Notes: generated by a model from the letters alone, not told the origin. A stretch of DNA of 32,000 nucleotides from Acaryochloris marina MBIC11017 (GCF_000018105.1 NC_009928.1:210001-242000), one strand, 5' to 3'; counted from the first letter of the stretch, positions 2,649 through 31,778 are shown. Program-made: numbers and translations.

Positions 2649-2687
2649 TCAACACTTTAGTCATCCAAAGATGAGAATCTAAAAAAA

Positions 2688-3173
2688 ATGGCACACTACA
2701 ATTTCATTACAGTTTGGGACATTGATGCCCCTATTGAGGACGTTTGGGAGCAACTGATTCACTCTGAAGATTGGCCTCAATGGTGGCCTGCTGTCCAAAG
2801 TGTTATTGAATTGGAAAAAGGGGATGAACAGGGGATTGGCAATATCCGTGAATATCATTGGAAAACTCCTCTCTCCTATGCTTTAAGCTTTAAAACTCGT
2901 TTAGTTCGCATTGAACCGCCAATACTGATTGAGGGAATTGCAAGCGGCGAAGTGGAGGGAAAAGGAATTTGGGAACTTCAATCCATACCTAAAGGCACTC
3001 GTGTCCATTATTACTGGACTGTAGTGACAACCAAACTCTGGATGAATCTACTAGCATTGCTGCTTAAACCACTCATGGAGTGGAATCACAATGCAACCAT
3101 GAGACAAGGTGCCCAAGGTTTAAGCCAAAGGATGGATACAGAGGTAACTTGTCAGGAGATGGCTGATTCCTAA
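2688..3173 (+). CDS. SRPBCC (START/polyketide cyclase-like) family protein
   Basis: Track ORF. The N-terminus ..ITVWDIDAPIEDVWEQLIHSEDWPQWWPAV.. is typical of SRPBCC ligand-binding proteins. Confidence 0.7.
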   Translation: MAHYNFITVWDIDAPIEDVWEQLIHSEDWPQWWPAVQSVIELEKGDEQGIGNIREYHWKTPLSYALSFKTRLVRIEPPILIEGIASGEVEGKGIWELQSIPKGTRVHYYWTVVTTKLWMNLLALLLKPLMEWNHNATMRQGAQGLSQRMDTEVTCQEMADS

Positions 3174-3292
3174 GCTTTGGAAGTAAAGATCATGCAAGCT
3201 TTGATGATGCCCTTCAGTCGCAGTTGCAATGCTGTGATTTAGAGGGAGCTAGGAAATATGCCTGGGACTCTTGATCGATCAACCAATAAACC

Positions 3293-3661
3293 CTATAAAC
3301 ACCTACGACTAGCATCTCCCAGCAAGAAAACATGCACGAGTTTCTGTGCAAACTTGCACGGTATCACCCAATGAGCGCATCCCACGACTAGGTATGCTTC
3401 TGGTTCTCCGGTGAAGTAATAGTTGAGACAGACCTTGCACTTGTTCACCGAGTCGTAAAACATACAGGACAACTCAAAAAACTTGGGTGGGGCCATTTCC
3501 AGATTCGCAAAGCCCTCAACGATAACTTCTGAAGTCTTAAAGAGTTGGATTTCGATCTTCAAGCTTCCTGGCCCAGATATTTCCAAAGTCTGAGATTCTA
3601 TGCCGACTTGAGTCTCAGACTTCAGTCCTACTCGCCACCCTTCGATGTCGTCGCTCATCAT
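3293..3661 (-). CDS. hypothetical protein (122 aa), last gene of the phage-type operon
   Basis: Track ORF. GGAGGTGA Shine-Dalgarno upstream of the ATG. Starts 15 nt after the DUF5131 stop. Confidence 0.5.
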   Translation of the reverse strand: MMSDDIEGWRVGLKSETQVGIESQTLEISGPGSLKIEIQLFKTSEVIVEGFANLEMAPPKFFELSCMFYDSVNKCKVCLNYYFTGEPEAYLVVGCAHWVIPCKFAQKLVHVFLLGDASRRCL

Positions 3662-3676
3662 CCACTGTCACCTCCA

Positions 3677-4552
3677 TCAACCAAACTCTGGGAATTCCCG
3701 CACTCGAAGATCCTTGGGCCACTCCTCAGCATCCCCACCCTTTGCAGAACAGTGCTTGGGAACCCCCACGGGATTGCTGCCGAGCTGCTTGATAAACACG
3801 GGGATATTGGCTGACTTGCATTGGTCTCGAATGGAGCGAATCCAAGCCACATCACAAGGCCGAGCGCCTGAGCCAGACTCACCCCCGGTAATGCACCAGA
3901 TCGGAGACGATGATGCCAGATTAAGGTCTACTGCTTCCAATAACAGCTCACAACTCAAAAACCGGATGGCGGCTGGTATTTGCCCGAGTAAAGGAATCCG
4001 CTCGTCTGCGGCTTTCTGATTCTCGACTGATACGCCTAACCAAAGATTAGATAGGGGCCAATCCCACTGATACGATTCAAGGTCGGCTAATACCTTGTGG
4101 TTGATATTGGCGGATCGACCCTTATCGACAGCGGCAAGACGGATTCTGTTTTTGGCAGTCTTTAGATAATCCCGCATTCGTTTTTGCCGCTTGGTCAGCA
4201 TCTGAATTGTGACTTTGGGATTGAGGGCAATTGCAGCAAAAATCTGATCCAACCACTCGTCTTTAACCGCTGAATGAAACGGATCAGACATCGAGGGCAT
4301 GAATACTCGGGTCGGTTTGCGGAACTTGAATAGTTTCTCTAGTTGATCAGGGACAAAGTTCACCTGGCCCGTCCAGTTCCCCTTCTCATCCACAACACCG
4401 TGGTACTGGGAGAACTGTTGCAGTCGCCCTGACTTGGAAGCTCTGGCCACATAGCAATGTTCACAGCCGCTGCTTTTTGCACCTTTGGCTCTAACCTTTG
4501 TACAACCCACCAAACAGTTGATAGTGTGATCGGTCCATTCGATAGTGGTCAT
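3677..4552 (-). CDS. DUF5131 (phage Gp37/Gp68) family protein
   Basis: Track ORF trimmed to the ATG at 4552. MTTIEWTDHTINCLVGCTKVRAKGAKSSGCEHCYVA matches the family signature TxIEWTD..N...GC....GC..CYA. Confidence 0.8.
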   Translation of the reverse strand: MTTIEWTDHTINCLVGCTKVRAKGAKSSGCEHCYVARASKSGRLQQFSQYHGVVDEKGNWTGQVNFVPDQLEKLFKFRKPTRVFMPSMSDPFHSAVKDEWLDQIFAAIALNPKVTIQMLTKRQKRMRDYLKTAKNRIRLAAVDKGRSANINHKVLADLESYQWDWPLSNLWLGVSVENQKAADERIPLLGQIPAAIRFLSCELLLEAVDLNLASSSPIWCITGGESGSGARPCDVAWIRSIRDQCKSANIPVFIKQLGSNPVGVPKHCSAKGGDAEEWPKDLRVREFPEFG

Positions 4553-4592
4553 GTCTGTTTCTCCAAAAGTTTTTATCAGGCTTGCTTCATCC

Positions 4593-5219
4593 CTATGCTT
4601 CCGCTCCCCAACACTCCCAACCCGGACGAGGGCACCGGGCAAACAACTCAATTCGCTGGCCGCCCAAGGCATCACCTAGCCGATCCGCCATCTGGTAGAA
4701 CTCTTCAGGCTTTTGAGAGTGCTGACCAAAGGGAGCCTGGAATGCGGTGGGAATATTAGTCAATCCAAGGGCGGTAAAGGTTTTGGCCTTACCCTTGCGG
4801 CCTATGAGAATATGTTCAGTTGCATTTCGACCGTAATGCCCTACGCCGAATCGTATGCAGAATAGGTCTTTTGTGACCTTCAGCCATGTGTGGATGGCCT
4901 TTTACTCAAACCTCCAGGACTCCATAACTCTGAAGGCCAATGGCAGGTGGTTGTTGGTCGTCCATAGCAGCAGATAGGAGTCGGGAGCAGCAATCGAACT
5001 CACGGGCATTGCCATGATTTCCTCATCCGTCATTGAGGGATAAGGGCACCGCCCCCGGTGGGTTTTGTCGCTTTCTCTCAGGTGATAGCTCCAAGGCGGA
5101 TCAGCCGCTATCAGGGAGAATGCACCCACGGGAAGGGGTGGCGTATTGGGTATGAGGTTGAGCGTGATGGCAAGCTTCTGTTGGCCGAGCTTGTCGGTTG
5201 GTGCGTACTTAGTTTTCAT
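4593..5219 (-). pseudogene. MT-A70 family N6-adenine DNA methyltransferase with a single in-frame TAA
   Basis: The track ORF carries the DPPW catalytic motif (..LIAADPPWSY..). Own translation past the TAA at 4902-4904 continues in the same frame: KAIHTWLKV..GVGHYGRNATEHILIGRKG..GQHSQKPEELY..IELFARCPRPGWECWGAEA, stop at 4593-4595. The stop sits where the family has Tyr (WGFEY). The likely start is MKTKYAP at 5219. Confidence 0.75.
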
Positions 5220-5334
5220 GGGTGGCTGCTCAAGACATACCTGAGGAAGAGATAAAGAAACATGCCGAAGTAAATTGATTGCCATATAAGCCACCAGAGA
5301 AAGGTGTAGCTATTCATAAGGTGAGTTTCCATCG

Positions 5335-5496
5335 CTAAGCTCCCCACCGATTGGATTCTCGGCAAAACCCCTCGGGGTCTAGTTGAGATGACTTGAACCA
5401 TTCGCCACAAGCACGACATTGCTGCTTAGGCTTGGGGGTAAGACCTCGCTTGACGGCCTGAACAATCCGATGCAGAAAGCTGTTCTCTAATTTCAT
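5335..5496 (-). CDS. small Cys-containing protein (53 aa)
   Basis: Own translation: MKLENSFLHRIVQAVKRGLTPKPKQQCRACGEWFKSSQLDPEGFCRESNRWGA. AAGGAG Shine-Dalgarno directly upstream. Sits between the PAPS-reductase remnant and MT-A70. Below the track's size cut-off. Confidence 0.35.
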   Translation of the reverse strand: MKLENSFLHRIVQAVKRGLTPKPKQQCRACGEWFKSSQLDPEGFCRESNRWGA

Positions 5497-5507
5497 GTCT
5501 AATCTCC

Positions 5508-5861
5508 TTAAGTCGGTCCTGCATCCTCCCCAAATGCACCCGCAGCCAGAGTCCAGGCATTCGGGTCAACGAGGATGGGTAGTGTGTATTCTTGGCTCAG
5601 GGCTAACCAGAGCTGGTCAGGATGTTGGTGGATAGCGTCATTGACCTTGCCCTTAGATGCCAACTCAGGAATGGAAAGCTTGTTGTCGAGAGTGTGCTGA
5701 AATACTTGTTCGTACTGGTGCAGTCGCTCTGTGCGTTCTGGCGAGATGGCTAGATTGGAAGCCCATTGGTTGGGAGAGCCGAAGATACAGAACTGGCAGC
5801 TCAGCCGCCCCCAGCCCAGGTAATAGGCAGGATGAACCTGCACTCCCCAGCGTATTACCTT
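5508..5861 (-). pseudogene. PAPS reductase-like (PP-loop ATPase family, phage type), C-terminal fragment
   Basis: The track ORF plus the open frame up to the TGA at 5862-5864 reads KVIRWGVQVHPAYYLGWGRLSCQFCIFGSPNQWAS...AGAFGEDAGPT. From memory this resembles the C-terminal ~115 aa of phage/plasmid PAPS-reductase-family proteins. There is no N-terminal part and no start codon. Confidence 0.55.
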
Positions 5862-5937
5862 TCAATTTATTTCAAGGGAACCAGAGTAATTACCACCACT
5901 GTCTCTATAGTTATTGCCGTGTCACTGCTGAATACCG

Positions 5938-6606
5938 ATGGCCCATATTCTTATTGCTGAGGATGAACCACGGATTGCATCTTTTATCGAGAAAGGTCTA
6001 AAAAGCCATGGCTTTACCACTACTACCATCGGTGATGCGCATGCAACCCTATCCCTCGCGGCGAGTGGTGAATTTGATCTTTTAATACTAGACCTGGGAT
6101 TGCCGGATAGAGACGGACTTGAAGTTCTAGCTGATTTGCGAGGACATGGGGCTAAATTACCCATCCTTATTTTGACCGCCAGAGATGATATTCAAGACAA
6201 GATTTCTGGCCTTGAGGGTGGGGCAGATGACTATATGACTAAACCCTTTCGATTTGAAGAGTTACTTGCCAGGGTACGTGTTCGCCTGAGAACCAATATC
6301 CATCAATCAACCTCTCAACCACTGACGATGGTGGCTCGTAATGTGGTGCTAGATTTACGGGCTCGTAAAGCCAAAGTCCATGATCAGTGGATTGAACTAC
6401 CTGCCCGGGAGTTTATTCTCACTGAAGCTTTCTTCCAACATCCGGGACAAGTACTCAGTCGCCAGCAACTTCTAGATCGCGTCTGGGGATATGACTATGA
6501 TCCAGGATCCAACATTGTGGATGTCTATGTGGGCTATCTACGCAAAAAGCTGGGTGACGATCTGATTCAGACTGTACGAGGGGTTGGGTATCGGCTAAAT
6601 GCTTAG
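5938..6606 (+). CDS. OmpR-family two-component response regulator
   Basis: Track ORF. Receiver domain (..ILIAEDE..DLLILDLGLPDRDG..TAR..KPF) followed by a winged-helix output (..VWGYDYDPGSNIVDVYVGYLRKKL..TVRGVGYRL). Confidence 0.9.
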   Translation: MAHILIAEDEPRIASFIEKGLKSHGFTTTTIGDAHATLSLAASGEFDLLILDLGLPDRDGLEVLADLRGHGAKLPILILTARDDIQDKISGLEGGADDYMTKPFRFEELLARVRVRLRTNIHQSTSQPLTMVARNVVLDLRARKAKVHDQWIELPAREFILTEAFFQHPGQVLSRQQLLDRVWGYDYDPGSNIVDVYVGYLRKKLGDDLIQTVRGVGYRLNA

Positions 6607-8092
6607 TCTAGATGAAGACGTTATGGCAATATCCAAACAGCAAAAACATCTACTGATTATTCCCAATCGCTCACTATGGGGAAGTTTTTTTCGCCAAACC
6701 CGGACACGTATTTTACTGATGTACGTTGTCCTGCTGAGTCTATTCACAGGACTGGCAATTCCTCTATTTCAGGTCTTGGTTACAGCTCAGGTTTCTCGAC
6801 GAGTGCGGAGTGATCTCAAAGGAGCCAGAGAAGTTTTCCTGGAAGCCTATACCGATTGGGAACAACAACCCAATCAAACGAAGCGTGATCTAGAAGACTT
6901 TGCAGATCAGTTTTTATCAAATCAAATCCCCGAAGATGATAGCTTCTTCATCTTTATCATTGATCAAGATCTCTATCGCTCAAATCCACCGCGATTATTG
7001 GAACCAATGCGGCCAGGGTCTGAGCTTTATCAACAATGGGCCTCTGTGACTCAATTTAGTCGAGGAGAGTGGAAGACAGCAAATACGGATCTAGGCAACA
7101 TTCTTTATAAAGCAGAGCCGCTGATCGTAGATGGTGAACAACTAGGAATTATGGTGCTTGCTCATGATACGGCAGGAGAGCAACAAGAATCTTTAGCCAG
7201 CGTTTATACCTTCACCTTAATTGAAGGAGGGGTTGTATGTATTTCTCTCTTGTTGGCTTGGTTCGCGACAGGGAGGTTACTCAAACCTGTTCGGGAGCTG
7301 GCCATTGCTGCTCGCAAAATTAATGAATCTGATTTAGACCTGCGTTTGTCCCCACAGGGGTCAGGAGAATTGTCAGACCTAGCCCAAACCTTCAATGCGA
7401 TGATGGATAGACTTCAAGATAGTTTTAATAGCCAGCGTCGCTTTGTGAACGATGCGGGCCATGAACTCCGTACCCCGATTACAGTTATTCGCGGGCATCT
7501 GGAACTGATTGGAGATGACCCCCAAGAACAGCAAGAAACGATTGAACTGGTTCTAGATGAACTGGATCGGATGGGTCGGTTAGTGAATGACATGGTTGCC
7601 TTAGCCAAGTCTGAACACCCCGACTTTCTTCAATATGAAATGATTGATCTCAAGCAATTCATCTACGATTTGCATACCAAAGCCCAAGCCATAGCAAAGC
7701 ACAATTGGCAGCTCACCCTGAAATGCTCTGGCTCAATGATGGGTGACCGTCAGAGGCTGACAGGAGCCCTACTCAATCTCCTGAGAAATGCTGCCCAACA
7801 TACCCCATCCACAGGAACCATTGAGTTAGGTTGTAAACAAACCCTTACTCAAGTTGTTTTCTGGGTTAAGGATACTGGGAAGGGGATTGCTCTAGAAGAT
7901 CAACAGCGAATTTTTGACCGTTTTGCTCGCTTAGGCCAACGCCAATCGGAAGGTTCCGGCCTGGGATTAGCCATTGTTCAAGCTTTTACCAAAGCCCACG
8001 GAGGTAAAATTGAGCTGATGAGTCAACTAGGTGTCGGCTCTACCTTTAGAATTACGCTGCCCCTCTCTGCCCAAAATAGCACTGTGGTATGA
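6599..8092 (+). CDS. sensor histidine kinase (two TM segments, HAMP, HisKA, HATPase_c)
   Basis: Track ORF. The ATG overlaps the response regulator stop. H-box FVNDAGHELRTPIT, N-box LLRNAAQHT, G-boxes DTGKGI and GSGLGLAIV. Hydrophobic segments lie near aa 40-60 and aa 205-225. Confidence 0.9.
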   Translation: MLSLDEDVMAISKQQKHLLIIPNRSLWGSFFRQTRTRILLMYVVLLSLFTGLAIPLFQVLVTAQVSRRVRSDLKGAREVFLEAYTDWEQQPNQTKRDLEDFADQFLSNQIPEDDSFFIFIIDQDLYRSNPPRLLEPMRPGSELYQQWASVTQFSRGEWKTANTDLGNILYKAEPLIVDGEQLGIMVLAHDTAGEQQESLASVYTFTLIEGGVVCISLLLAWFATGRLLKPVRELAIAARKINESDLDLRLSPQGSGELSDLAQTFNAMMDRLQDSFNSQRRFVNDAGHELRTPITVIRGHLELIGDDPQEQQETIELVLDELDRMGRLVNDMVALAKSEHPDFLQYEMIDLKQFIYDLHTKAQAIAKHNWQLTLKCSGSMMGDRQRLTGALLNLLRNAAQHTPSTGTIELGCKQTLTQVVFWVKDTGKGIALEDQQRIFDRFARLGQRQSEGSGLGLAIVQAFTKAHGGKIELMSQLGVGSTFRITLPLSAQNSTVV

Positions 8093-8097
8093 AAAAC

Positions 8098-8263
8098 GTT
8101 CAATCTTTCTCCTGGGTACACCCAGTTCCAGTAGCCTGAGCAGACAGCAGATAGAGTCCTTACCACCCGAGAAGGCAACCAAGATACGGTCATAGGTGGA
8201 CAAATCAGGGAGCGTCGAGGCACCAGGTACTTGGAGAGGCAAGACCATTTGGGTGGTACTCAT
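8098..8263 (-). pseudogene. PAPS reductase-like protein, N-terminal fragment
   Basis: The first ~55 aa of track ORF 8027..8263, MSTTQMVLPLQ..YDRILVAFSGGKDSICCLLRLLELGVPRRKIE, carry the SGGxDS PP-loop. Family-like sequence stops at ~8098, a few nt from the convergent histidine kinase stop (8092). Confidence 0.6.
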
Positions 8264-8984: not shown

Positions 8985-9266
8985 TCACACTTGGGCCAAG
9001 ACCTTCATTCCCACCTCCGTCTCGCCTCCTTCGTCCATCTCTCGAAGGTTCTTCAGGTATTCTGGTGTCGGATAAATTCCCCGTACCTTGCCGCAGTCTT
9101 CACAAAGCCAACGACAGTAGGGGCGACCAGAGGATTTGTGGATCAAGACTTGGGATGCGATGGCCTAAGGCCGGTCGGAGACCATCGCAAATCGTAATTG
9201 ATGACAACTATGGCAACGACGAATCAGCGGCACCTCAATGGGTCGCACAGTTAGTTTCATAAACAT
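8985..9266 (-). pseudogene. small zinc-ribbon protein gene interrupted by a palindromic mini-element (in-frame TAG)
   Basis: Own translation from the ATG at 9266 (AGGAGA Shine-Dalgarno 8 nt upstream): MFMKLTVRPIEVPLIRRCHSCHQLRFAMVSDRP*AIASQVLIHKSSGRPYCRWLCEDCGKVRGIYPTPEYLKNLREMDEGGETEVGMKVLAQV*. One frame runs throughout. The TAG at 9165-9167 lies inside the 34-bp palindrome. Confidence 0.45.
9156..9189. repeat. 34-bp palindromic mini-element, copy 1 (TGCGATGG-N18-CCATCGCA)
   Basis: tgcgatggcctaaggccggtcggagaccatcgca. Its reverse complement matches 15105-15138 except for 3 positions. The terminal arms are perfect 8-bp inverted repeats. Confidence 0.75.
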
Positions 9267-14992: not shown

Positions 14993-15160
14993 ATGGCAAT
15001 TCAGTCTACAAAAAGGTTTCAAGTGCTTTTCTCTGATGCACTCACCCAATCTCTCAGTGAAAGGGGCAAGGACAAGGAGTTGGTCTGTAGCCTGGTATTG
15101 GGATTGCGATGGTCTTCGACCGGCCTCCGGCCATCGCAAATAACAAGACCAAGACTTTAG
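14993..15160 (+). CDS. ribbon-helix-helix-like small protein carrying an in-frame copy of the palindromic mini-element
   Basis: Own translation: MAIQSTKRFQVLFSDALTQSLSERGKDKELVCSLVLGLRWSSTGLRPSQITRPRL. The N-terminus resembles CopG/RHH antitoxins (KR.QV.F.D.L...L). Residues LRWSSTGLRPSQ are encoded by the 34-bp palindrome. Confidence 0.35.
   Translation: MAIQSTKRFQVLFSDALTQSLSERGKDKELVCSLVLGLRWSSTGLRPSQITRPRL
15105..15138. repeat. 34-bp palindromic mini-element, copy 2 (opposite orientation to copy 1)
   Basis: tgcgatggtcttcgaccggcctccggccatcgca. See 9156-9189. Confidence 0.75.
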
Positions 15161-15193: not shown

Positions 15194-15232
15194 GGCCTAA
15201 AACGACCGAAGCTGCGATATGGGGCAATTTAG
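15194..15232 (+). repeat. transposon terminal inverted repeat, left copy (unoccupied intron homing site at 15232/15233)
   Basis: ggcctaaaacgaccgaagctgcgatatggggcaatttag. It is 39/39 identical (40/40 including 15193) to the reverse complement of 20874-20912. Its length and its inner ..TTTAG end are reminiscent of Tn3-family 38-bp IRs, which end in TAAG. Confidence 0.8.
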
Positions 15233-15275
15233 TATATATGTACTTAAATGAGAGGCGATTCTGTCACAATTACCG

Positions 15276-15776
15276 TCAGCCCTCCTTCTCCACATGGAGC
15301 GCTTTTAGGGCTTGATAAGCCGTTCCACAATACGGACAGAATCGATGCTTGAGAGACGCAATCTGTTCATTGCAATTGACACATCTGTCTCGAAGTTGCG
15401 TACCGCAAACATAGCAGTATTGAGCACGGCTATGAAGCCAGATTGAATCTGGAGGCGTTCCCGGCCGCCAACAGTGAGGGCAAAACCGAATCCCTTGGTT
15501 GGGACTAACCACCGTTCCACGACAGACCGCATCAAGATAATCACTGGGAATTTGGAGGGCAGCTGCTAATCCTTGTTTCGTTTTCCGATTCAAGGAACTG
15601 GTTTTATTGCGTTCTAGCTTGCCATAGCTTTGGGCATGGACCCCTGCCTTTATCGCCACTTCCTTTTGGGACAAACCGAGCGTTGTTCGGAGACGATGGA
15701 CATAATCACCCAAGGATTCTCCAGCTTGTGGAACCGAGCTAGATTCTAAACGCTGCATTACAAGCTTACTCATCAA
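15276..15776 (-). CDS. XRE-type HTH protein with C-terminal double zinc ribbon (transposon passenger or regulator)
   Basis: Track ORF. ..LRTTLGLSQKEVAIKAGVHAQSYGKLERNK.. (HTH), then FCPHCW..YCYVCG..CVNCN..FCPYCG (four CxxC pairs). Confidence 0.7.
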   Translation of the reverse strand: MMSKLVMQRLESSSVPQAGESLGDYVHRLRTTLGLSQKEVAIKAGVHAQSYGKLERNKTSSLNRKTKQGLAAALQIPSDYLDAVCRGTVVSPNQGIRFCPHCWRPGTPPDSIWLHSRAQYCYVCGTQLRDRCVNCNEQIASLKHRFCPYCGTAYQALKALHVEKEG

Positions 15777-15839
15777 TCATTCATCAGAGGTATACTTCAT
15801 GCGGCTGTTGGAGCCTTAAGACTTAACAGAAAGATCATC

Positions 15840-16736
15840 ATGTCCAAGCCTTTGGCAATGGTTACAACCGAGTTTTTAGATCGCCCTGGCTTAGCTGCCA
15901 GCACGGTTCGCTCCTACGAATTCACCTTATTGCCTTTGCTTCAACAATATGGTCAGTGGTCCTTAGAATTACTCGACCGACAGACCCTAGAAGAATATCT
16001 CAATTCCTTGAGCCATCTATCGTTCAAGACTCATCATCGTCACCAAGCCATCCTACAAGCACTCCTCAACTTTGCAGTTGAGCAAGGATACCTGCGGTCT
16101 AATCCAATGACCCGTATGAAACGGCGTAAGCCAGATCCTGCTAAAGGAGAGCATGACTCAGACTAGATCATTCGATACCTAACCCCAGACCAACTACAGC
16201 TGCAATACCAACTGGTCAGCAAAGATGCTCGTACTGCAGCTCTTGTCCGCTTACTCCATCGCACCGGTGCCCGTATTTCTGAGCTACTTAGCTTAGACCT
16301 TGAAGCACTGGATCTGGAACAGCGCAAGTTTCAAGTGATTGGCAAAGGTAATCGACAACGGTGGTGTTTTTACAGCGAAGATGCAGCAGAAGTTTTGCAG
16401 AAATACTTGGCAGGGTATCGGCACCCCGGATCTCCAGCGCTGTTTACCGCACAGCAATACTTAAGTGGCCAGGTGAATCGACTCAGTTATCGGAGTGCCC
16501 ACCACAATTGGAAGCAGCTCATCAAAGGCCATCCAGCATTAGCTGGAATTCGGCTCCATGATCTGCGCCATACATTTGCCACCGAGAGAGTGGGCATCAT
16601 TGCCCTAGAAGAGCTCAGGGCCTTAATGGGGCATCAGAGTATTCAGACAACCTTGCGCTACCAAAAAGTCACTTCTGAGCAAGCACAACACGCAGCTCAA
16701 AGAGCCTTCAATAAACTCTCTCAAACCACCCTTTAA
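15840..16736 (+). pseudogene. tyrosine recombinase (TnpI/XerC-like) with a single in-frame TAG
   Basis: Track ORFs 15840..16166 and 16335..16736 are in the same frame. Own translation across the gap: ..KGEHDSD*IIRYLTPDQLQLQYQLVSKDARTAALVRLLHRTGARISELLSLDLEALDLEQRKFQVIGKGNRQRW... The C-terminal catalytic motifs HDLRHTFA and GHQSIQTTLRY are present. The TAG is at 16164-16166. Confidence 0.8.
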
Positions 16737-16959
16737 GGAGAGTTGAGTATTTCTTGAGAAATTGTCCTTATCCATGTCTATACAAGAATAGAGCCAAATT
16801 TAGAGAGTATGGACAGTACTGTGCAAGTGCAGACTATGAGTCAATTTAAAAGCCTGGGATCCTTGCTAAGAGCTACAGCAATAGCGGGACACACACTTTT
16901 GGATTCATCTGCAAAATCCGCTATCTTGTCGCGAGGGAGTGGTAAGCGGAGCAAGCGAT

Positions 16960-18750
16960 ATGAAGCGCCAATGGCAGCCGGATGAACTGATTGAATCCTT
17001 CATTTTGTTGCCCAATGAGTTGGAGCTTATTCCCAACTATCAGACCAACGCCACGGAGCATAACCAGCTGGGTTTTGCTGTGCTGCTGAAATTCTTTCAA
17101 CTTGAAGGTCGCTTCCCCAAGCACCTGGGCGAGATTCCTCAGATCGTCGTGGAGTTCATTGCCAAACAACTAAAGCTGACGCATCAAAGCTTGGTTGATT
17201 ACAAATGGAAAGGCCGGACTATCAAGGAGCATCGAGCTATCATCCGTTCCTTTCTCGGATGTCGTCCCACCCAGCAACCCGAAAAGAAGTCATTGATGAC
17301 CTGGCTCAAAGAGAAAGTGATGCCTCTGGGGCTCCATTTGAATGCGATTCGAGAGCAAGCCTATCAACGTCTGCGTCACCTTAAGCTTGAACCCCCTTCC
17401 CCCAAAGAATTGACCCGGCTTATCAGCTCAGCTGCCCACAACCATGAACAGGACTTTTGCCAAACAATTGCGGCACGACTCCCAGCAGATACTCGAAAAA
17501 GGATGGATGCTTTATTAGAAACAGAATTCACCCGAGACCATGAGGAAAGTCAGTTCCGGCAGTCCGACTTCAACCGTCTCAAGTCAGATCCGGGGCGTCT
17601 AGGCCTGAAAAGTCTCTTCAATGAAATCGATAAGCTGCAAAGTATCCGACAGATTCAGCTGCCTACAGATCTATTTGCCTCCTATTCTCCTAAGCTGATT
17701 GAGCAATATCGGCGTCGAGCCTCAGCCGACCTGGCGGGACGCCTACGCCGCCACCCAAAGGCCATTCGCTACACTCTCATTGCTTCGTTCTGTTATCAAC
17801 GCGAAAAAGAGATCACTGATAATCTAGTCGATTTGCTAGTCCAGACCATCCATCGTCTTAGCATCAGTGCCGAGCGTCGTGTAGAGCGAGAACTGATCGC
17901 TAATTTCAAACGCGTCAATAATAAAGAGGCCCTTCTATACCGAATTGCGGAAGCGGCCTTAGCCAATCCAGATCAACCCGTTAAAGAGGTGATCTTTCCG
18001 GTCGTTAGTCCCGATAAATTGACTAACGTAATTGAGGAGCGAAAACGAACCGGCATTACCTACCGAGAAAAAGTGAATGTCAAGATTCGAGCCTCTTATT
18101 TGCATCACTATCGGCGGATGGTGCCGGCCATTTTGGAGACCCTGGATTTTCACTCCAACAACGAGCAGCATCGCCCTGTCATTGAGGCCATTGAATTGCT
18201 CAGGCAGTATCAGGGCAGTGGAAAGCGATACTTCACTGAGGATGAAAAGGTGATCACCACTGGTGTCCTAAAAAGCGGTTGGCGCGAGCTCGTCATCGAA
18301 TCCAATTCCAAAGGCCAAGACCAGGTCAACCGCGTCAACTATGAAATCTGTGTCTTGCAAACGCTGCGAGACACACTGCGCTGTCGTGAAGTGTGGGTGA
18401 TGGGTGCCAAACGCTACGGGAATCCTGATACGGATTTACCCCAAGATTTTGAAGCTCAACGAGAGCAGTACTATTTAGAACTCAACCAACCCTTGGATGC
18501 TGAAGCCTTCGTCACGAAACTGAAACTGGATATGACGGCAGCTCTGTCCTCCTTAAATACGAGCATCCCCAACGATCCACAGGTCAATATTCTGTCCCGA
18601 GGTAACGGCTGGATTAGTGTTACCCCCTACCCGGCTCAAGAGGAACCCAGTAATATCCACAAACTGAAACAGGAGGTGGCGAAACGCTGGCCAATGACCA
18701 GCTTGTTGGACATCCTCAAGGAAACGGACCTGCGCGTTAATTTGGCCTAA
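16960..18750 (+). pseudogene. tnpA: Tn3-family transposase, N-terminal ~600 aa only
   Basis: Track ORF; the ATG at 16960 is preferred. It has a DUF4158-type N-terminus (..ELIESFILLPNELELI..NQLGFAVLLKFFQLEGRFP). Full-length Tn3 transposases are ~1000 aa. The final codons and the TAA are supplied by the intruding terminal repeat (..aat ttg gcc taa). Confidence 0.85.
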
Positions 18751-19024
18751 AACGACCGAAGCTGAGATGGGCCAATGACGTTGCTCAAGCATCGATTCTG
18801 TCCGTATTGTTGAACGGCCTATCAAGCCCCAAAAGCACTCCATGTGGTGAAGGAAAGCTGCCGGCAATAGTGGCAGAATAGTCTCTCATTTAAGTACAAA
18901 TATAGTCAGGTAGAGAGGACCTCTTCAATACTTAGGTCTGCTTTGTATTCCCTGTTTCTCCCTCCTTTCGGCTCAGGAGTGTCACAAGATTTGACCCTAT
19001 ATTGTTGAGAGCCTCCCCCCCACA

Positions 19025-19057
19025 GAAGCCCGCCTGCGGTTTTCCCGCACGAGCCTC
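19025..19057 (-). ncRNA. group II intron domain V candidate
   Basis: Minus strand: GAGGCUCGUGCGG-GAAAA-CCGC-AG-GCGGGCUUC. It has a 9-bp lower helix, a 2-nt bulge on the 3' strand, a 4-bp upper helix and a GAAA-type loop. It starts 21 nt after the RT stop. Confidence 0.6.
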
Positions 19058-19078
19058 TTCATATAGCCTTTGTCAGGT

Positions 19079-20377
19079 TCAATAGAGAGAAACCAATCGC
19101 CTGGGGCGTGGTAATGGGTAGCATGCTTCATAGTGCAGAAAATCACCCCATGAAAAGCTTCGCCGTTGACTGCGACGATTGAGCCACTTAAATAGCAGCT
19201 TGTAGACTTCTCGCCTGAAGTAGTACAGAGATTGACTATTGTCGGTCACTCCAAAGTAGTTAAAGTGCCCACACAACTTCAAACTCACTACTCGCCAGAT
19301 CACAGGAAGCTTATAGATATTGCGTACCTTCCGCAACCACATTTTTAGTTGCTTAAGGGAGCGACGTAGCCGTTTCTTTGATGTCTTACGTTTCATGCGG
19401 ACATACCCCTTGCGACTCCGGCCCCAATAGTGGGTCAACCCAAGAAAATCAAAGGTTGATGGACGTTGCCCAGTCTGGAAACAGCGCCGAGCATTTCTTT
19501 TACCAAAGGCCAACAAGTGGGTTTTCTTTGTATTTAGTCGTAAGCCATATTTCTCCAGCCGTCGCGGCAGTACCCGCATAAATCTAATGGCATCTTCTTC
19601 ATGTTCAAACACAGCCGCAACATCGTCTGCGTATCGAATAATGGCGCAATACCCTCGGCAGTGATGTCTCACTACGTTGGTAAACCATTGGTCCAACACG
19701 TAGTCGAGGAAGATATTCGCAATCACAGGGGAGACGATTGAGCCCTGAGGACTTCCGAGTTCGTCGTACACCACGCCTCCAGGTGTTTGTATGCCCGCTT
19801 TGAGCATCCGTGCTATCAGACGCAGAAGATTCCCGTCCTTTATTCGGATACTCAATACGGAAAGGATTTCCTGGTGAGGCATTGTGTCGAAGAATTTGGC
19901 TAGATCGATATCAGCGACCCAATTTACGGGTTTACGCATCACTTCCCTATTTAGCTGCCTTAAAGCATCATGGCAGCTCCGCTTTGGGCGGAATCCATAT
20001 GAGGTGTCGATAAACACGGGTTCATAGATCGCTTCTAGGATCCGACGGGTCATCTCCTGAACTACTTTATCTTCCGTACAGCTGATCCCTAAAGGACGCA
20101 TACTGCCATCCTCTTTTGGGATCTCTACCTGACGCACCGGTTGGGGTCGATACGACATTTGGCGTAGTTTCAGGTGTAGATTCTGGAGATTAGTCTCCAA
20201 ATTTTCCTGGTACTCCGCCTTGGTCACTCCATCTACTCCAAGCGCTTTGTTTCCATCCAGCGACTCGAAGCAGGCTCGCAGATTTTCCACACTATAGTGG
20301 TGCATCAGAGCCGTGAATGGCTCCTCTGGATGATTACGAGCCCGACTAGCTATCCGTTCAACTCCTGTTTCCGCCAT
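19079..20377 (-). CDS. group II intron reverse transcriptase/maturase (no endonuclease domain evident)
   Basis: Track ORF 19079..20446; the ATG at 20377 (MAETGVERIA.., GAGGTGGA Shine-Dalgarno) is preferred. RT blocks are present, including ..RRVEIPKEDGSMRPLGI.., ..FDTMPH.., ..GSPQGSIVSPVIANIFL.., ..IRYADDVAAVF... The maturase X region is ..LCGHFNYFGVTDN... Confidence 0.9.
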   Translation of the reverse strand: MAETGVERIASRARNHPEEPFTALMHHYSVENLRACFESLDGNKALGVDGVTKAEYQENLETNLQNLHLKLRQMSYRPQPVRQVEIPKEDGSMRPLGISCTEDKVVQEMTRRILEAIYEPVFIDTSYGFRPKRSCHDALRQLNREVMRKPVNWVADIDLAKFFDTMPHQEILSVLSIRIKDGNLLRLIARMLKAGIQTPGGVVYDELGSPQGSIVSPVIANIFLDYVLDQWFTNVVRHHCRGYCAIIRYADDVAAVFEHEEDAIRFMRVLPRRLEKYGLRLNTKKTHLLAFGKRNARRCFQTGQRPSTFDFLGLTHYWGRSRKGYVRMKRKTSKKRLRRSLKQLKMWLRKVRNIYKLPVIWRVVSLKLCGHFNYFGVTDNSQSLYYFRREVYKLLFKWLNRRSQRRSFSWGDFLHYEACYPLPRPRRLVSLY

Positions 20378-20873
20378 GAGTCCACCTCTGCGTGTAGATG
20401 ACGTTTCCGTTGGACGGGCGACTATATGTGTCCCCCTTCGCTCCATGGGCGTTACTCCATTTCTTCACTACTATGAGGACATCCGACTTCCCATTAACCA
20501 TCAGGCTTCCTCCTGGTTTGCCAGTTGTGCTGCCTTACCCCCACAAGGGAGGAGTTAGTGGGATCTCCCGAGTTCCCAGCTTTGCCTTGGTGACGTGCCA
20601 CGGTCTTTGACCCCGGTGGACCTGCTAGAGCCATGGCTATTGGCTCTTTAAGTTTTGCCTTCCATGATTTAGAACATGTCGGCATCCACAGTTATTGGGG
20701 ATAACGGGGCTCAATCCCTTCACGCTTACGCATTGCGGCCCATCACCTCCTTGTGTACGCTTCACTCCCCTCGTTACCGGGAACAGTGCAACACTCAGTA
20801 CTTAGTGCCTAGCCAAGGCTTCTAGGGTGAGGACTTTCACCTCACGGACAAAGCCGAGCTTTGCTCGGCGCAC

Positions 20874-20912
20874 CTAAATTGCCCCATATCGCAGCTTCGG
20901 TCGTTTTAGGCC
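20874..20912 (-). repeat. transposon terminal inverted repeat, perfect inverted copy (serves as the intron 5' exon)
   Basis: Reverse complement of 15194-15232, 39/39 identical. Confidence 0.8.
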
Positions 20913-20913
20913 T

Positions 20914-21300
20914 TGTGGCGACAGTATCTCCGTCGATTTGCGCTGGAGCATTGGTATCGGTTTGTCCGCCAGCGTCTCCATTGGACCGTTCCCCAACCCT
21001 CAACCATAGAGCAAATGGAAGCTTGGTCGGATCTGATGCCCCTGCTCACCTGGCAGTTATGGCTGGCGCGTTCCCTCGTCGAAGATACGCCACTACCCTG
21101 GCAAAAAAAGGTTGACTCACTATCTCCAGGACGGGTTGCTGACTCTATTACTGCACTTTTAGCAAGGATTGGTTCCCCTGCACCTGACCCCAAACCTCGC
21201 GGAAAGTCGCCGGGGTGGACGACTGGCAGAAAAAGAACTCCGCGACCTCGCTATCCAACAGTAAGGGAAAGAGCATCCAAGCCCCCAAAAACGGAGAAGG
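20914..21300 (+). pseudogene. IS4/IS701-like DDE transposase, C-terminal fragment
   Basis: Track ORF 20913..21392 begins abruptly at the IR junction. WRQYLRRFALEHWYRFVRQRL fits the Y-x2-R-x3-E-x6-K/R signature of IS4-superfamily catalytic domains. It has a basic P/R/K-rich tail. No N-terminal part exists anywhere in the window. Confidence 0.55.
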
Positions 21301-21692
21301 TAGCCGCCTATGCTTCCGATCTTAGTCTCGTAATATCGCGATCATGCGAGAGAAGTGCTCGCGTGATAATTTCTGCTGAAGCTTCTTTTTAGTCTAAATT
21401 CCAATTGATATGGCAATCCTAAATGTCGAAGCGGTTTTAAGATCAGTACATCGGTCCAATTGGATCTGAAGTTGTTCGATTTTATCTAGCGTTAACAGAG
21501 ACATAGATGACCACACCACTAGATTGCAAGCTTAATTAAACCATTTAATGGTATAAAAATCTGTTCCTGCCATACGACGATCACAAATTTAGCCCCGTTG
21601 ATTTCATCAACTTGCAGTTTCTCTAAGACTGGATCTTGAATAAATTATTAATAAATATCGTAGACATATAAAGATTACACTCCCGCTTCCCT

Positions 21693-21721
21693 TGGCTTAT
21701 CCTTTGTTCTCACGGTAAATT
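21693..21721 (+). promoter_or_regulatory. candidate sigma-70 promoter conserved upstream of both DUF4259 paralogs (copy 1)
   Basis: TGGCTT-17 nt-TAAATT. The whole ~45-nt block gcttatcctttgttctcacggtaaattgtcc is conserved with 31325-31355. Confidence 0.4.
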
Positions 21722-21748
21722 GTCCTTGAAGCTAACCAGAGTACTTCA

Positions 21749-22147
21749 ATGGGCACATGGGGACCAGGGAGCTTTGAGAATGATGATGCAATAGACTGGG
21801 TTGCAGAGCTAGAGAGCTACTCAGACGATGGCCCTATCATTGATGCCCTCAACACCATCATTGACAGAGCCGATGATTACCCACAACCTCTAGATTGCTC
21901 CGTTGCCATTGCGGCGGCAGAGTTAGTTGCTGCACAGTTAGGTAATTCCCATGAGGACTGCCCAGAGGAAATCGAGATATGGGTAGAGGGGCATCCAGCC
22001 CCCTCAGCAACGAGGATTGCCCAGGCTCGACAAGCCATCGAGGTAATTCTGGCTGAATCTGGACTCAAGGAAATGTGGCAAGATTCAGATGAATGGGAGA
22101 AATGGGAAGAAGCGATGGAGGATATGCTGTCTAGACTGCCATACTGA
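21749..22147 (+). CDS. DUF4259 domain protein
   Basis: Track ORF. MGTWGPGSFENDDAIDWVAEL.. is the DUF4259 signature N-terminus as I recall it. Paralog of 31380..31778. Confidence 0.7.
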   Translation: MGTWGPGSFENDDAIDWVAELESYSDDGPIIDALNTIIDRADDYPQPLDCSVAIAAAELVAAQLGNSHEDCPEEIEIWVEGHPAPSATRIAQARQAIEVILAESGLKEMWQDSDEWEKWEEAMEDMLSRLPY

Positions 22148-26124: not shown

Positions 26125-26832
26125 TCACAAAGAGTCAGTCAAGAGTCTTGGATCTAAAGCAACATCAGAACCGCCATCTGAAACCATCGATCCATCAAAA
26201 CCTTGCTGAGTTCCACTTCTTTGGCTGCTCTCATCCTTCCACTTCTGCGGTATATCTCTAGCATTGTCCCAACTACCAATTGATGACCAATTCGTTTCAA
26301 GATCAAAACGGATGTTGAGAAGGTCTGCTCCCTCAAAATTAGCTCCTTCAAGATCCGCACCAGAAAGATCCGCTTCATAGAGATTAGCTTCACATAGGTA
26401 GACTTCACAAAGGCTCGCCTGACTGAGGTCTGTCTCACTGAGATTGGCTTTGTAAAGATAGGCTCTACAAAGGTTGGCACCACGGAGATCGGCTTTATAG
26501 AGGTTGACGTTATAGAGATTGGCTTTCCAGAGACTAGCCGTACACAAGTCAGCCTCAATGAGGTTGGCGTCTTTAAGGTTCGCTTTACTTAAAATGGCAC
26601 CACGAAGATTGGCTTTCCAGAGGCTGACTTCACAAAGGCTGGCCTGACTGAGATTAGCACCCGTGAGATTAGCCCCGATCATGATCGCTTTATCAAAGTT
26701 AGCCCCATGTAGATCCATCCCAGTCAGGCTGGCCTTGCTGAGGTTAATCGATACCTTGAGATTTTCCTTTCTCCACTCATTCCAAACTTCAACACCCTGA
26801 CTCAGCAAGGCTATCTGTTCCTGATTAGCCAT
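26125..26832 (-). CDS. pentapeptide repeat protein
   Basis: Track ORF. Long run of A(D/N)LxG/A(N/D)Lxx repeats (..ANLTGANLSQASLCEVSLWKANLRGAIL..). Confidence 0.9.
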   Translation of the reverse strand: MANQEQIALLSQGVEVWNEWRKENLKVSINLSKASLTGMDLHGANFDKAIMIGANLTGANLSQASLCEVSLWKANLRGAILSKANLKDANLIEADLCTASLWKANLYNVNLYKADLRGANLCRAYLYKANLSETDLSQASLCEVYLCEANLYEADLSGADLEGANFEGADLLNIRFDLETNWSSIGSWDNARDIPQKWKDESSQRSGTQQGFDGSMVSDGGSDVALDPRLLTDSL

Positions 26833-28329: not shown

Positions 28330-28484
28330 GGTTTTTTTGCACAACCCCTCGGAAAGGTATATTCCAGGCTTTTGAAGTGTAGGTATAACCGAGTAAACTA
28401 TGGCTATGAGTCTTTTATCGTAAGAGTTTTAGCCATTTTGGGAAATTAGTGTGAGCGCTGAAAGATCACCTCAAAAAGTATACC
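28330..28484 (+). repeat. ~155-bp imperfect inverted repeat, left arm, flanking the DinB gene
   Basis: ggtttttttgcacaacccctcggaaaggtatattccaggcttttgaagtg..gagtcttttatcgtaagagtttt..attagtgtgagcg.. aligns with the reverse complement of 29521-29677. Roughly three quarters of positions match by eye. Confidence 0.7.
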
Positions 28485-28647: not shown

Positions 28648-29157
28648 TTAAGCGGCAACAAACTGAGGCATGAATGGAATGTCTGTGCTCCCAATATCTA
28701 ACCCCATTTGTGAGAGCAAAGTAGTCACTTGCCCCCTGTGGTGTGTTTGATGATTGAACATATGCATCACCAAAGCCCAGCGGGGAACTGTGCGAATTTT
28801 GCCGTCAACCTTACTTTGATATGTTTGCTCTTCGTCCAACCAAATGGGATCTAGCGCTGAAACCCAATCTATGATCCGAATATCCAACGCTTCTCTCTCT
28901 ACCCTAAGATCCGTAAATGAAGAAGCTAACTCTTGACCTAGCTCAGGAACCTGCACTGGATTGCCTGTGAATCGAGATAAAAATGCTAAATCCCCGTACA
29001 TAATGTGGTTAATCGTCATGTAAATAGAATCAAAAAAGGCTTTTCGATCTAGCCGAAGCTCCTCTTCGGACAATCTCGAACACACATCAAAGAGCTTGAT
29101 ATTCATCCACTGATTATATTTAGCCAATAGCTGAAAGCATTTGTGTTCAGACATCAC
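28648..29157 (-). CDS. DinB family protein (DinB/YfiT-like metal-dependent four-helix bundle)
   Basis: Track ORF. ..LAKYNQWMNIKLFDVC..INHIMYGDLAFL..MHMFNHQTHHRGQVTTLL.. shows the DinB His triad pattern. Confidence 0.85.
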   Translation of the reverse strand: MMSEHKCFQLLAKYNQWMNIKLFDVCSRLSEEELRLDRKAFFDSIYMTINHIMYGDLAFLSRFTGNPVQVPELGQELASSFTDLRVEREALDIRIIDWVSALDPIWLDEEQTYQSKVDGKIRTVPRWALVMHMFNHQTHHRGQVTTLLSQMGLDIGSTDIPFMPQFVAA

Positions 29158-29520
29158 TACTCCAGATCAGAAAATTGACAACCTTTATGAATCCTATTAG
29201 TAACCATCCGACCTGTCACTTAGTAACCATCCGACCTGTCACCCACATTGATCGAGCTTTGCAATATTCAGTATGTTTTCTGGCTTCGATTTAGAATCCA
29301 GCATTCACTGGCCCAAAACAAGGGCGGCAATTGTTTGTGGCTTTTCTTGCCACCTAACGCTTCGTCAACAGGACTTCCGATGAAATACCAAAAGCTACTA
29401 CCTTCGAATGATGCTGCACCTGCCATTCTGAGCAGCTGATAGAGTGCTGAGGATGGCCTCAGTAGGTATATGAAACGATGCTCTGTTTTCTTTTCTCATG
29501 TCCTACCTGTGTCTCCTCAT

Positions 29521-29677
29521 CTCTACTTTTCAAGACGGTGCGTTGGGCACTCACACTAATTCTTAGAGAATAACTCAAACTCTTACTAGAAAAGACTCTT
29601 GGTCATAATTGACTTGGTCATAACTCCACTTCAAAAGCCTGGAATATACCTTTGCGAGGGGATGTGCGAAAAATTCC
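29521..29677 (-). repeat. ~155-bp imperfect inverted repeat, right arm
   Basis: See 28330-28484. Confidence 0.7.
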
Positions 29678-31142: not shown

Positions 31143-31322
31143 GTTCGTGCCTCCTCAATTACTGGATATTGGCAGCCTGATGATTGGCATTGCTTGATTA
31201 TTGAGTCTCTCTTGGTTTCTGAATATCAACCCATTCAGCTTCATCAAGATTGCTGATGACATCACTGACCATTACCGAGAGAACTCTTGGCCCAATTTCA
31301 CTGTATCCAAGACGGCATCCCT

Positions 31323-31351
31323 TTGCTTATCCTCTGTCCTCACGGTAAATT
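31323..31351 (+). promoter_or_regulatory. candidate sigma-70 promoter conserved upstream of both DUF4259 paralogs (copy 2)
   Basis: TTGCTT-17 nt-TAAATT. In this copy gcttatcc (31325) can also pair with ggataagc just before the ATG. Confidence 0.4.
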
Positions 31352-31379
31352 GTCCCTGGAACTCACCAGGGGATAAGCG

Positions 31380-31778
31380 ATGAGCATATGGGGACCAGGC
31401 AGCTTCGAGAATGATGACGCACTAGACTGGGTGGCTGAACTGGCCGATTCTGATGACGACAATCCGATCATTGATGCTCTAAACACCGTCATCGACCAAG
31501 CAGACGAGTCCCCAGAAGCCCCTGATTGTGCGGTTGCCATTGCAGCGTTGGAGGTTGTGGCTGCATGGATGGGAGAACCCTCAGACGATTGCCCAGAGGA
31601 GGTGGAGGCATGGGTTGAAGGACGGCCAGCCCCACCCGCAACAATGATTTCTCAAGCGAGATATGTTGCCGAAGCCATTTCAGAAAAGTCTGACCTCAAA
31701 GAGTTGTGGAAGAATTCAGATGATTTTGAACTATGGCAAACTTCCGTGAATGATTTACTAGGCAGGTTGCTTTACTAA
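31380..31778 (+). CDS. DUF4259 domain protein (paralog)
   Basis: Track ORF. MSIWGPGSFENDDALDWVAEL... Same length as and collinear with 21749..22147. Confidence 0.7.
   Translation: MSIWGPGSFENDDALDWVAELADSDDDNPIIDALNTVIDQADESPEAPDCAVAIAALEVVAAWMGEPSDDCPEEVEAWVEGRPAPPATMISQARYVAEAISEKSDLKELWKNSDDFELWQTSVNDLLGRLLY

Follow-up and report, generated by a model that had tools for sequence, protein, structure and literature searches.

An endonuclease-less group II intron on the inner side of a Tn3-family terminal repeat in Acaryochloris marina MBIC11017

What brings a group II intron to the exact inner edge of a transposon terminal repeat, and what decides which repeats it enters? The question is raised by a 1969-nt segment in a 32,000-nt window of an Acaryochloris marina MBIC11017 plasmid (NC_009928.1:210001-242000), in which an empty copy of the same repeat is also present. 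Coordinates refer to the whole window unless a related locus (L number) is named. Our analysis indicates that an endonuclease-less (En-less), IIB-like mobile intron probably retrohomed into a terminal repeat of the Tn3 family, at its inner edge and at a site chosen by RNA pairing.

The intron occupies positions 18905..20873 on the minus strand and extends from 5' GTGCGCC to CTCTCTACCTGAC at its 3' end, with boundaries taken from Rfam model RF02005, an alignment of relatives and precise empty alleles. Its 5' exon is a left-type 39-bp terminal repeat (20874..20912, minus strand), of which identical copies lie at 15194-15232 and in L023, L024 and L026. An earlier reading of the window, here called the original prediction, had noted the identity of the two window repeats; it extends to 40/40 positions with one flanking base, the repeat proper being 39 nt. 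The same reading had opened the intron at GTGCGCC, and the first intron bases on the minus strand, directly after the repeat, are indeed GTGCGCCGAGC (GTGCG at 20873-20869). At the other end, the proposed position 18905 is the final base of an intron ending in ...GAC, and the exon restarts at 18904, from where 126 nt downward match 15233-15358 with 87% identity. Together with the repeat identity, this match spans 15232/15233, in agreement with the uninterrupted allele that had been proposed there, and a further intron-free allele is found at L023 4039/4040. Because of the empty site at 15232/15233 and a 99%-identical intron-free element in strain MBIC10699, both splice sites of this complete group II intron are fixed to the nucleotide. 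The ligated exon junction implied by these boundaries is CAATTTAG joined to TATATTTG.

A covariance model supports the predicted group II fold, with RF02005 (group-II-D1D4-6) matching the domain I core (20601..20837, minus strand) from end to end (model positions 1-225/225, 140.9 bits, E = 2e-40). A search of a genome collection recovered 20 related loci, and more than 12 full-copy relatives align colinearly from intron position 1 to 1964-1969 at 71-80% nucleotide identity. Full-copy relatives have their end sequences in common, namely GTGCGCCGAGC at the 5' end and CTCTCTAC(C/T)(C/T)GAC at the 3' end.

The nature of the host repeat is best seen at the empty site. There, the left terminal repeat (15194..15232, plus strand) has the two intron binding sites (IBS1 and IBS2) and the following T identical to those of the occupied site, is empty at 15232/15233, and opens a truncated Tn3-family transposon (15194..18743, plus strand). 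The transposon is colinear with L024 16905-13356 (pREC4 of MBIC10699) at 97.7% identity, and the match stops exactly at the tip of a miniature element in which the intron resides. The intact copy in pREC4 (L024 9654-16905) has a 5-bp target duplication, AGATA, and the repeats GGCCTAAAACGACCGAAGCTGCGATATGGGGCAATTTAGTA and GGCTTAAAACGACCGAAGCTGCGATATCGCACCATTTAGTA; the window copy, being rearranged, has no such duplication. By this comparison the sequence originally called a transposon terminal repeat is a genuine terminal repeat of the Tn3 family. Canonical Tn3-type repeats are about 38 bp long. In the intact transposon, the left and right repeats are alike to nt 41 (ATTTAGTA), with TA at nt 40-41, and the intron separates repeat nt 39 from nt 40, which places it at the inner boundary or marginally inside it and splits off the last two matched bases. 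The canonical 38-39 bp would remain contiguous beside the intron. The suggestion that the intron sits there without touching the inverted repeat is thus correct for these 38-39 bp, but nt 40-41 are severed and the sequence recognized is the repeat itself.

The unit that carries the intron (18744-20912; 2169 bp, or 200 bp when the intron is subtracted) is a miniature Tn3-family derivative, in which the left repeat is joined to 126 nt of left subterminal DNA and a right-type repeat. Its 3' exon, which is the rest of the element (18744..18904, minus strand), is 97.6% identical to L023 4204-4040. The right-type repeat (18744-18768, with its tip at 18744) is 96% complementary to 20888-20912, and a 19-nt repeat core turns up at three places in the window (15196+, 18746+ and 20910-), where 0.01 would be expected by chance. 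The 126-nt subterminal part includes the last ~31 codons of the transposon's zinc-ribbon gene (tblastn). The insertion site itself is non-coding, lying 43 nt past the stop codon of the zinc-ribbon gene and on the strand opposite to it, and consequently no host gene depends on splicing. The suspicion of a miniature derivative is borne out by an intron-free unit in pREC1 of MBIC10699 (L023 4001-4200), in which 198/200 nt align at 99% identity and are contiguous across the insertion point. In all, the miniature element was seen in pREC1, in pREC4 beside the transposon, and in the window.

We take this host to resemble TIMEs, the Tn3-derived inverted-repeat miniature elements (Szuplewska et al. 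2014). Like them, it is a gene-less 200-bp unit with Tn3-type repeats, derived from one transposon end and present in several contexts. The sole copy with comparable flanks (L023, TAATC/TAATA) displays only 4/5 of a 5-bp target duplication. In the window, the tips of the miniature element adjoin tnpA on one side and, on the other, the C-terminal fragment of an NF041680-family transposase gene (20913..21392, plus strand; profile positions 317-438/439), which is cut by the tip. That the miniature element had simply inserted into tnpA was considered and rejected, as these flanks are unrelated and show no target duplication. Because of the missing duplication, a deletion mediated by the repeat ends, or a recombination, more likely produced the window junctions.

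Three elements of domain I would read this repeat. Exon binding site (EBS) 1, CUAAAU (20667..20672, minus strand), is where it was first proposed, in a terminal loop placed by the Rfam consensus, and pairs 6/6 with IBS1, AUUUAG (20879-20874). The same columns pair at 5-6 of 6 positions with the 5' exon in eight relatives that have different exons. EBS2, in contrast, had to be moved. The sequence first assigned to it, GCCCCGT (20710-20704), can pair with ATGGGGC if one G-U is allowed, yet it is within a stem, GAGCCCCG (20712-20705), whose partner in the Rfam consensus is CGGGGTC (20615-20609), and it was rejected because this stem is invariant among relatives whose exons differ. The revised EBS2 is CCCCA (20696..20700, minus strand), which occupies the internal loop following that stem and pairs 5/5 with UGGGG at positions -13..-9 (20886-20882). 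Relatives display covariation of EBS2 with IBS2 (GAGAA/TTCTC in L003, ATAAC/GTTAT in L005, TAGAC/GTCTA in L007 and CACCA/TGGTG in L027).

EBS3 was sought by screening the domain I columns against the +1 base of nine sequences, allowing at most one non-pairing sequence. Intron position 266, an A at 20608 (minus strand), pairs with the first 3'-exon base, T18904, and its column complements the +1 base in 9/9 sequences, with all four bases represented. Position 104 was the second column to pass this lenient screen, with pairing less consistent than that of 266, and the base just 5' of EBS1, where a delta contact would be expected instead, shows no correspondence with +1 when judged by eye. We take position 266 to be a IIB-type EBS3; an EBS3 in domain I that pairs with the first 3'-exon base makes the intron appear IIB-like. 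Because this column pairs with the +1 base, the 3' splice site is independently confirmed. In terms of the repeat, the intron RNA would select its site by pairing EBS2 with nt 27-31 (IBS2), EBS1 with nt 34-39 (IBS1) and EBS3 with the next base (IBS3). Target pairing of the intron RmInt1 also spans -13 to +1 (PMC8914252).

The nearest relative of the A. marina intron lends weight to this reading. Its protein, P0002 on metagenome contig L027, has 88% amino acid identity, and the intron follows GGGGCCTAACACAACGGAACGTGCGATTTGGTGCAGTTTAG, which agrees with the A. marina repeat at ~31/39 positions (counted by eye). The L027 elements are EBS1 CTAAAC and EBS2 CACCA, and both changes restore pairing with the diverged repeat. 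On the other strand, 32 nt downstream of the L027 intron, is the end of a Tn3 tnpA C-terminus; the open reading frame (ORF) found there was also considered as a zinc-ribbon gene, to which it has no similarity. In a diverged Tn3 repeat, the L027 intron thus occupies the position homologous to that of the A. marina intron, and because the nearest relative shares the repeat position with compensating changes in both EBS1 and EBS2, the association seems not to be a one-off.

The protein encoded by the intron is consistent with an En-less mode of mobility. The predicted intact reverse transcriptase/maturase ORF was found in domain IV at 19079..20446 (minus strand); this intron-encoded protein (IEP) has 455 aa, an uninterrupted reading frame and a YADD motif, and it scores 334.5 bits against NCBIfam TIGR04416 (cut-off 300) and 135 bits against Pfam RVT_1. 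RVT_1 was the sole Pfam match of the IEP in a profile search that gave no match to an HNH endonuclease domain. The C-terminal 432 residues are identical to a shorter annotated protein, ABW32255.1/WP_012167571.1, of the 273,121-bp replicon of A. marina MBIC11017.

Under the proposed mechanism, a repeat bound by the transposase would double as the homing site of the intron, priming would come from a replication-fork strand as in other En-less introns, and the interrupted element could still be mobilized by transposase supplied in trans. Priming of En-less introns from replication-fork strands has been described (PMC4424553), and En-less RmInt1 favours the lagging-strand template (PMC8914252). 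The occupied and empty sites of the window are on opposite strands, which fits a strand bias as a single case.

A more specific scheme couples entry to transposition, such that the repeat is invaded when replicative Tn3 transposition fires a fork and the target is briefly single-stranded 39 nt from the nick. We regard this scheme as quite improbable. The Shapiro model gives the lagging-strand template assignment for a fork that enters from the transposon end, and the sense strand, running from the 5' tip to the interior 3', would be the lagging-strand template of such a fork. The preference of RmInt1 for that template (PMC8914252) and the use of the same position in two diverged repeats are in its favour as well. 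On the other side, the relatives that target IS1 are oriented in the opposite sense, from interior to tip, and opposite-strand occupied and empty sites fit an ordinary plasmid-fork bias equally well. We give just as little credence to the broader idea that the sub-lineage is a dedicated Tn3 hyperparasite, with the repeat as homing site, EBS1 and EBS2 tracking its divergence, and fork-coupled entry on the lagging-strand template. Were that so, every transposition would open a chance for homing, and the transposon would carry the intron from replicon to replicon.

The catalytic and branch-site domains can be followed in the same relatives. Domain V (19024..19058, minus strand) forms a hairpin in the minimum free energy fold, with 10 bp, a 2-nt 3' bulge, 4 bp and a GAAAA loop, and AGG at the position of the triad; the consensus fold of nine sequences includes one compensatory change in domain V, from C-G to U-A. 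Domain VI is 116 nt long (18907..19022, minus strand) and in the consensus fold leaves a 2-nt tail before the 3' splice site. The proposed branch site, A18911, is the sole unpaired base of its basal helix, at position -7 from the 3' splice site. In this consensus fold, 11/53 pairs are changed on both sides among the nine sequences, and the pair below the branch A covaries from G-C to A-U.

Several findings weigh against an intron that homes to Tn3 repeats and remains active, and those that concern its distribution are given first. Six left-type target sites in three strains are empty (window 15194; L023 4001; L024 16905 and 8560; L026 9001 and 15636), five of them free of mismatches in the final 20 exon nt and the sixth, L024 8560, with one mismatch, and one empty site is 5.6 kb from the intron on the same molecule. 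The exact IEP is on record for one replicon only, and the records searched contain no second full-length copy of the intron. Two metagenome scans gave 0 matches, one for the 19-nt repeat core and one for the junction of TTTAG with GTGCGCCGAGC. In relatives at 70-85% identity the targets are different ones, and the EBS matches the target in each case. The original prediction had gone further than these data allow in making every copy of the transposon or its miniature derivative a homing site, as right-type repeats, both the tnpA-proximal one and that of the miniature element, have TCGCA and GGGCC in place of TGGGG and therefore no IBS2, six matching sites are empty, and the exact IEP is known from one replicon.

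Empty sites also bear on the direction of the event. Presence and absence alone give no direction, and the 2-kb segment might in principle be ancestral, with the empty copies as precise deletions. Precise loss of introns at the DNA level is rare relative to retrohoming. Six independent repeats in three strains are without the intron, and the EBS/IBS logic predicts exactly an insertion point of the 15232/15233 type, which together make this explanation extremely improbable.

The distribution is more favourable to an incidental landing, in which a chance EBS match allowed a one-time insertion with no lasting relationship to Tn3 elements, and introns simply accumulate in mobile DNA that tolerates them. 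The exact IEP occurs on one replicon with the other matching sites empty, and relatives at 70-85% identity reside in an IS1 repeat, a hairpin-like motif or a simple repeat, or beside ordinary genes; the tendency of bacterial introns toward mobile DNA is documented (PMC4424553). Chance would hardly account for the nearest relative, which is at the homologous position of a repeat diverged at ~8/39 positions with EBS1 and EBS2 both adjusted, and we consider an incidental landing unlikely.

As to activity, the AGG triad of domain V amounts to a G-C pair replacing C-G at the third pair, and RF00029, the domain V/VI model, gave no match to the intron at its gathering score or at E <= 1. A canonical domain V has AGC or CGC as its triad (PMC4424553). 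A promoter scan of the upstream DNA on the intron strand found no more matches than in shuffled sequences and none that was convincing, and the DNA upstream of the intron is an antisense transposase fragment. These findings suit a fossil, that is, an intron that arrived by retrohoming and is now an immobile or non-splicing copy stranded in a dead transposon remnant. One full copy and one degraded 46-aa fragment, an empty adjacent site, the non-canonical triad with no RF00029 match, the lack of a clear promoter and a defective surrounding transposon would all agree with it. Set against a fossil are the intact ORF with YADD and a score above the NCBIfam cut-off, the pairing of every RNA element with the present exons, and the presence of the AGG domain V in all relatives, including ~10 Cla-17 copies. 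On balance we find a fossil doubtful, though it is the strongest of the alternatives.

The shared triad deserves a further word. The AGG domain V is common to all relatives of the lineage (same columns in L003-L018), including ~10 near-identical copies in Leptolyngbya/Phormidium sp. Cla-17. Because every relative shares it, multi-copy ones included, we take it to be a class or lineage trait that is compatible with spread, not a sign of decay. RF00029 does match an unrelated group II intron in L024, which indicates that the miss here reflects the unusual domains V and VI of the lineage; the more distant D1D4-6 introns L019 and L020 have yet another domain V sequence and are likewise not matched by RF00029. 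Returning to the mobile-intron reading, we infer that the A. marina intron still splices and moves.

A trace of a second copy is the 46-aa ORF ABW31382.1 on the 374,161-bp replicon of MBIC11017, which is 93% identical to IEP residues 269-312 and is the remnant of a second copy of the A. marina intron or of a sister intron. Look-ups by exact sequence of the 46-aa fragment (P0121) and of protein P0001 returned no record.

More distant relatives use unrelated targets, and homing in this lineage is therefore not confined to Tn3 repeats. In Cla-17 (L007-L014), and also in L018, the intron is inside the terminal repeat of an IS1-family element, between GG and TAATGTTCTAGACCTGTGG. The ~10 near-identical Cla-17 copies are of a 70%-related intron positioned 2 nt from the outer IS1 tip, and in L007 and L010 both IS1 ends carry introns, arranged head to head. 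An intron 2 nt from the IS1 tip should separate the cleavage site from the remaining repeat. L004, L005, L029 and L030, from four organisms, have in common a hairpin-like target between GGGGTTATTTGCAT and nnCCCCCCGAAAAGG; this shared target, GGGG(C/T)T(A/T)TTTGCAT followed by nnCCCCCCGAAAAGG, resembles the loop of a G/C hairpin. Further relatives are in a simple repeat, beside ordinary genes and at intergenic sites.

In L003 (Phormidesmis priestleyi), the insertion point is between CCAAAATTTCTCCGATTCTA and TACATAGGCG, 27 nt outside a Tn3 repeat tip (regions 2385-2425, 2544-2573 and 4544-4555). The 5' exon of L003 was also considered as a second repeat abutting the transposon tip; only ~14 nt resemble the repeat. 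This target resembles the sequence just past the tnpA stop codon inside the neighbouring Tn3 transposon. The L029 intron (2123-8230) is ~6.1 kb long and has an IS66-family transposase gene directly after the IEP ORF, inside the intron. L006, from Candidatus Entotheonella sp. TSY1, a non-cyanobacterial sponge symbiont, has a full-length intron whose IEP is 72% identical, which suggests transfer across phyla.

That introns live in other mobile elements is an established principle, and the A. marina case is a clean new example. RmInt1 of Sinorhizobium meliloti (class D/IIB3) also has an IEP without an endonuclease and a homing site in a multicopy mobile element, ISRm2011-2 (PMC8914252, PMC1802570). 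The A. marina intron differs in its AGG domain V, its 116-nt domain VI and its Rfam D1D4-6 match; the first two of these features speak against a ready assignment to class D beside RmInt1. RmInt1 interrupts the interior of its insertion sequence and occupies many of its sites, whereas the A. marina intron adjoins a Tn3-family terminal repeat on its inner side, in non-coding DNA, and only one occupied site was seen. An 'exon-less' group II intron is also known in a non-coding part of the Tn3-family mercury transposon TnMERI1/Tn5084 of Bacillus megaterium MB1 (PMC6920998). That intron, in contrast, is located between tnpR and merB3 and so away from the terminal repeats, and a link of its EBS to a repeat sequence is not known from any report. 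Class C (IIC) En-less introns use terminators and integron attC sites as safe insertion features (PMC4424553). They read a stem-loop and short IBS1/3, whereas the A. marina intron would read a specific sequence through full EBS1, EBS2 and EBS3. Searches of the open-access literature yielded no report of a Tn3 terminal repeat as a group II homing site, and on Acaryochloris group II introns they yielded passing mentions only.

The locus provides a natural occupied/empty pair, exact to the nucleotide, for an En-less intron targeting a Tn3-family repeat, together with a diverged second occurrence. This makes it possible to ask by experiment whether the intron tracks the repeat over evolution, whether the repeat stays functional, and whether the replication that accompanies transposition feeds retrohoming. 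It also draws attention to a lineage that, with its AGG domain V and expanded domain VI, escapes the standard domain V/VI models.

The original prediction had suggested that the host element could stay transposable, which is an inference. The window transposon itself is dead: its tnpA is cut and its recombinase gene has an in-frame stop. The tnpA gene (16939..18750, plus strand; NF033527 positions 1-573/954, 424.6 bits; DUF4158; tblastn with the Moss Beach TnpA) retains the N-terminal ~596 of 986 codons and breaks off at about codon 596, exactly where the repeat tip starts (18744); the full-length TnpA in L026 (12150-15110) has 986 aa. A tyrosine recombinase gene (15840..16736, plus strand), recovered by tblastn in a single frame as 298 aa with 97% identity to the intact pREC4 gene, has its in-frame stop at 16164-16166, and the ORF list divides it in two. 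The gene nearest the left repeat, and reading toward it, is the zinc-ribbon gene (15276..15776, minus strand), which encodes helix-turn-helix and double-zinc-ribbon domains (Pfam HTH_3, HTH_31 and DZR). The backbone flanking this cluster of mobile elements is syntenic with plasmid pREC3 of MBIC10699. In pREC4 (L024 10538-12991), and likewise in L023, tnpA is split between codons 716/717 by a different group II intron, which encodes a 567-aa ltrA and has a 3' end matched by RF00029; with this second intron in tnpA, the transposon family hosts two unrelated introns at two sites.

Other repeats were observed in the window. A self-complementary motif of ~35 nt, TGCGATGG...CCATCGCA, occurs in two copies (9156-9192 and 15104-15141), one of them ~55 nt outside the left repeat of the transposon. 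A DUF4259 gene with its upstream region is present twice (21685-22147 and 31315-31778), the copies being 9.6 kb apart with 85% nucleotide identity. Within the ORF at 26125-26832 (minus strand), which looks like a pentapeptide-repeat gene, positions 26366-26673 contain eight overlapping copies of a 68-nt unit at spacings that are multiples of 15 nt. A 105-nt inverted repeat (28333-28437 and 29569-29673; 84%) surrounds a 1.1-kb segment that contains an ORF at 28648-29157 (minus strand) and, at 29197-29242, two perfect tandem copies of 23 nt; a further small mobile element may be represented here.

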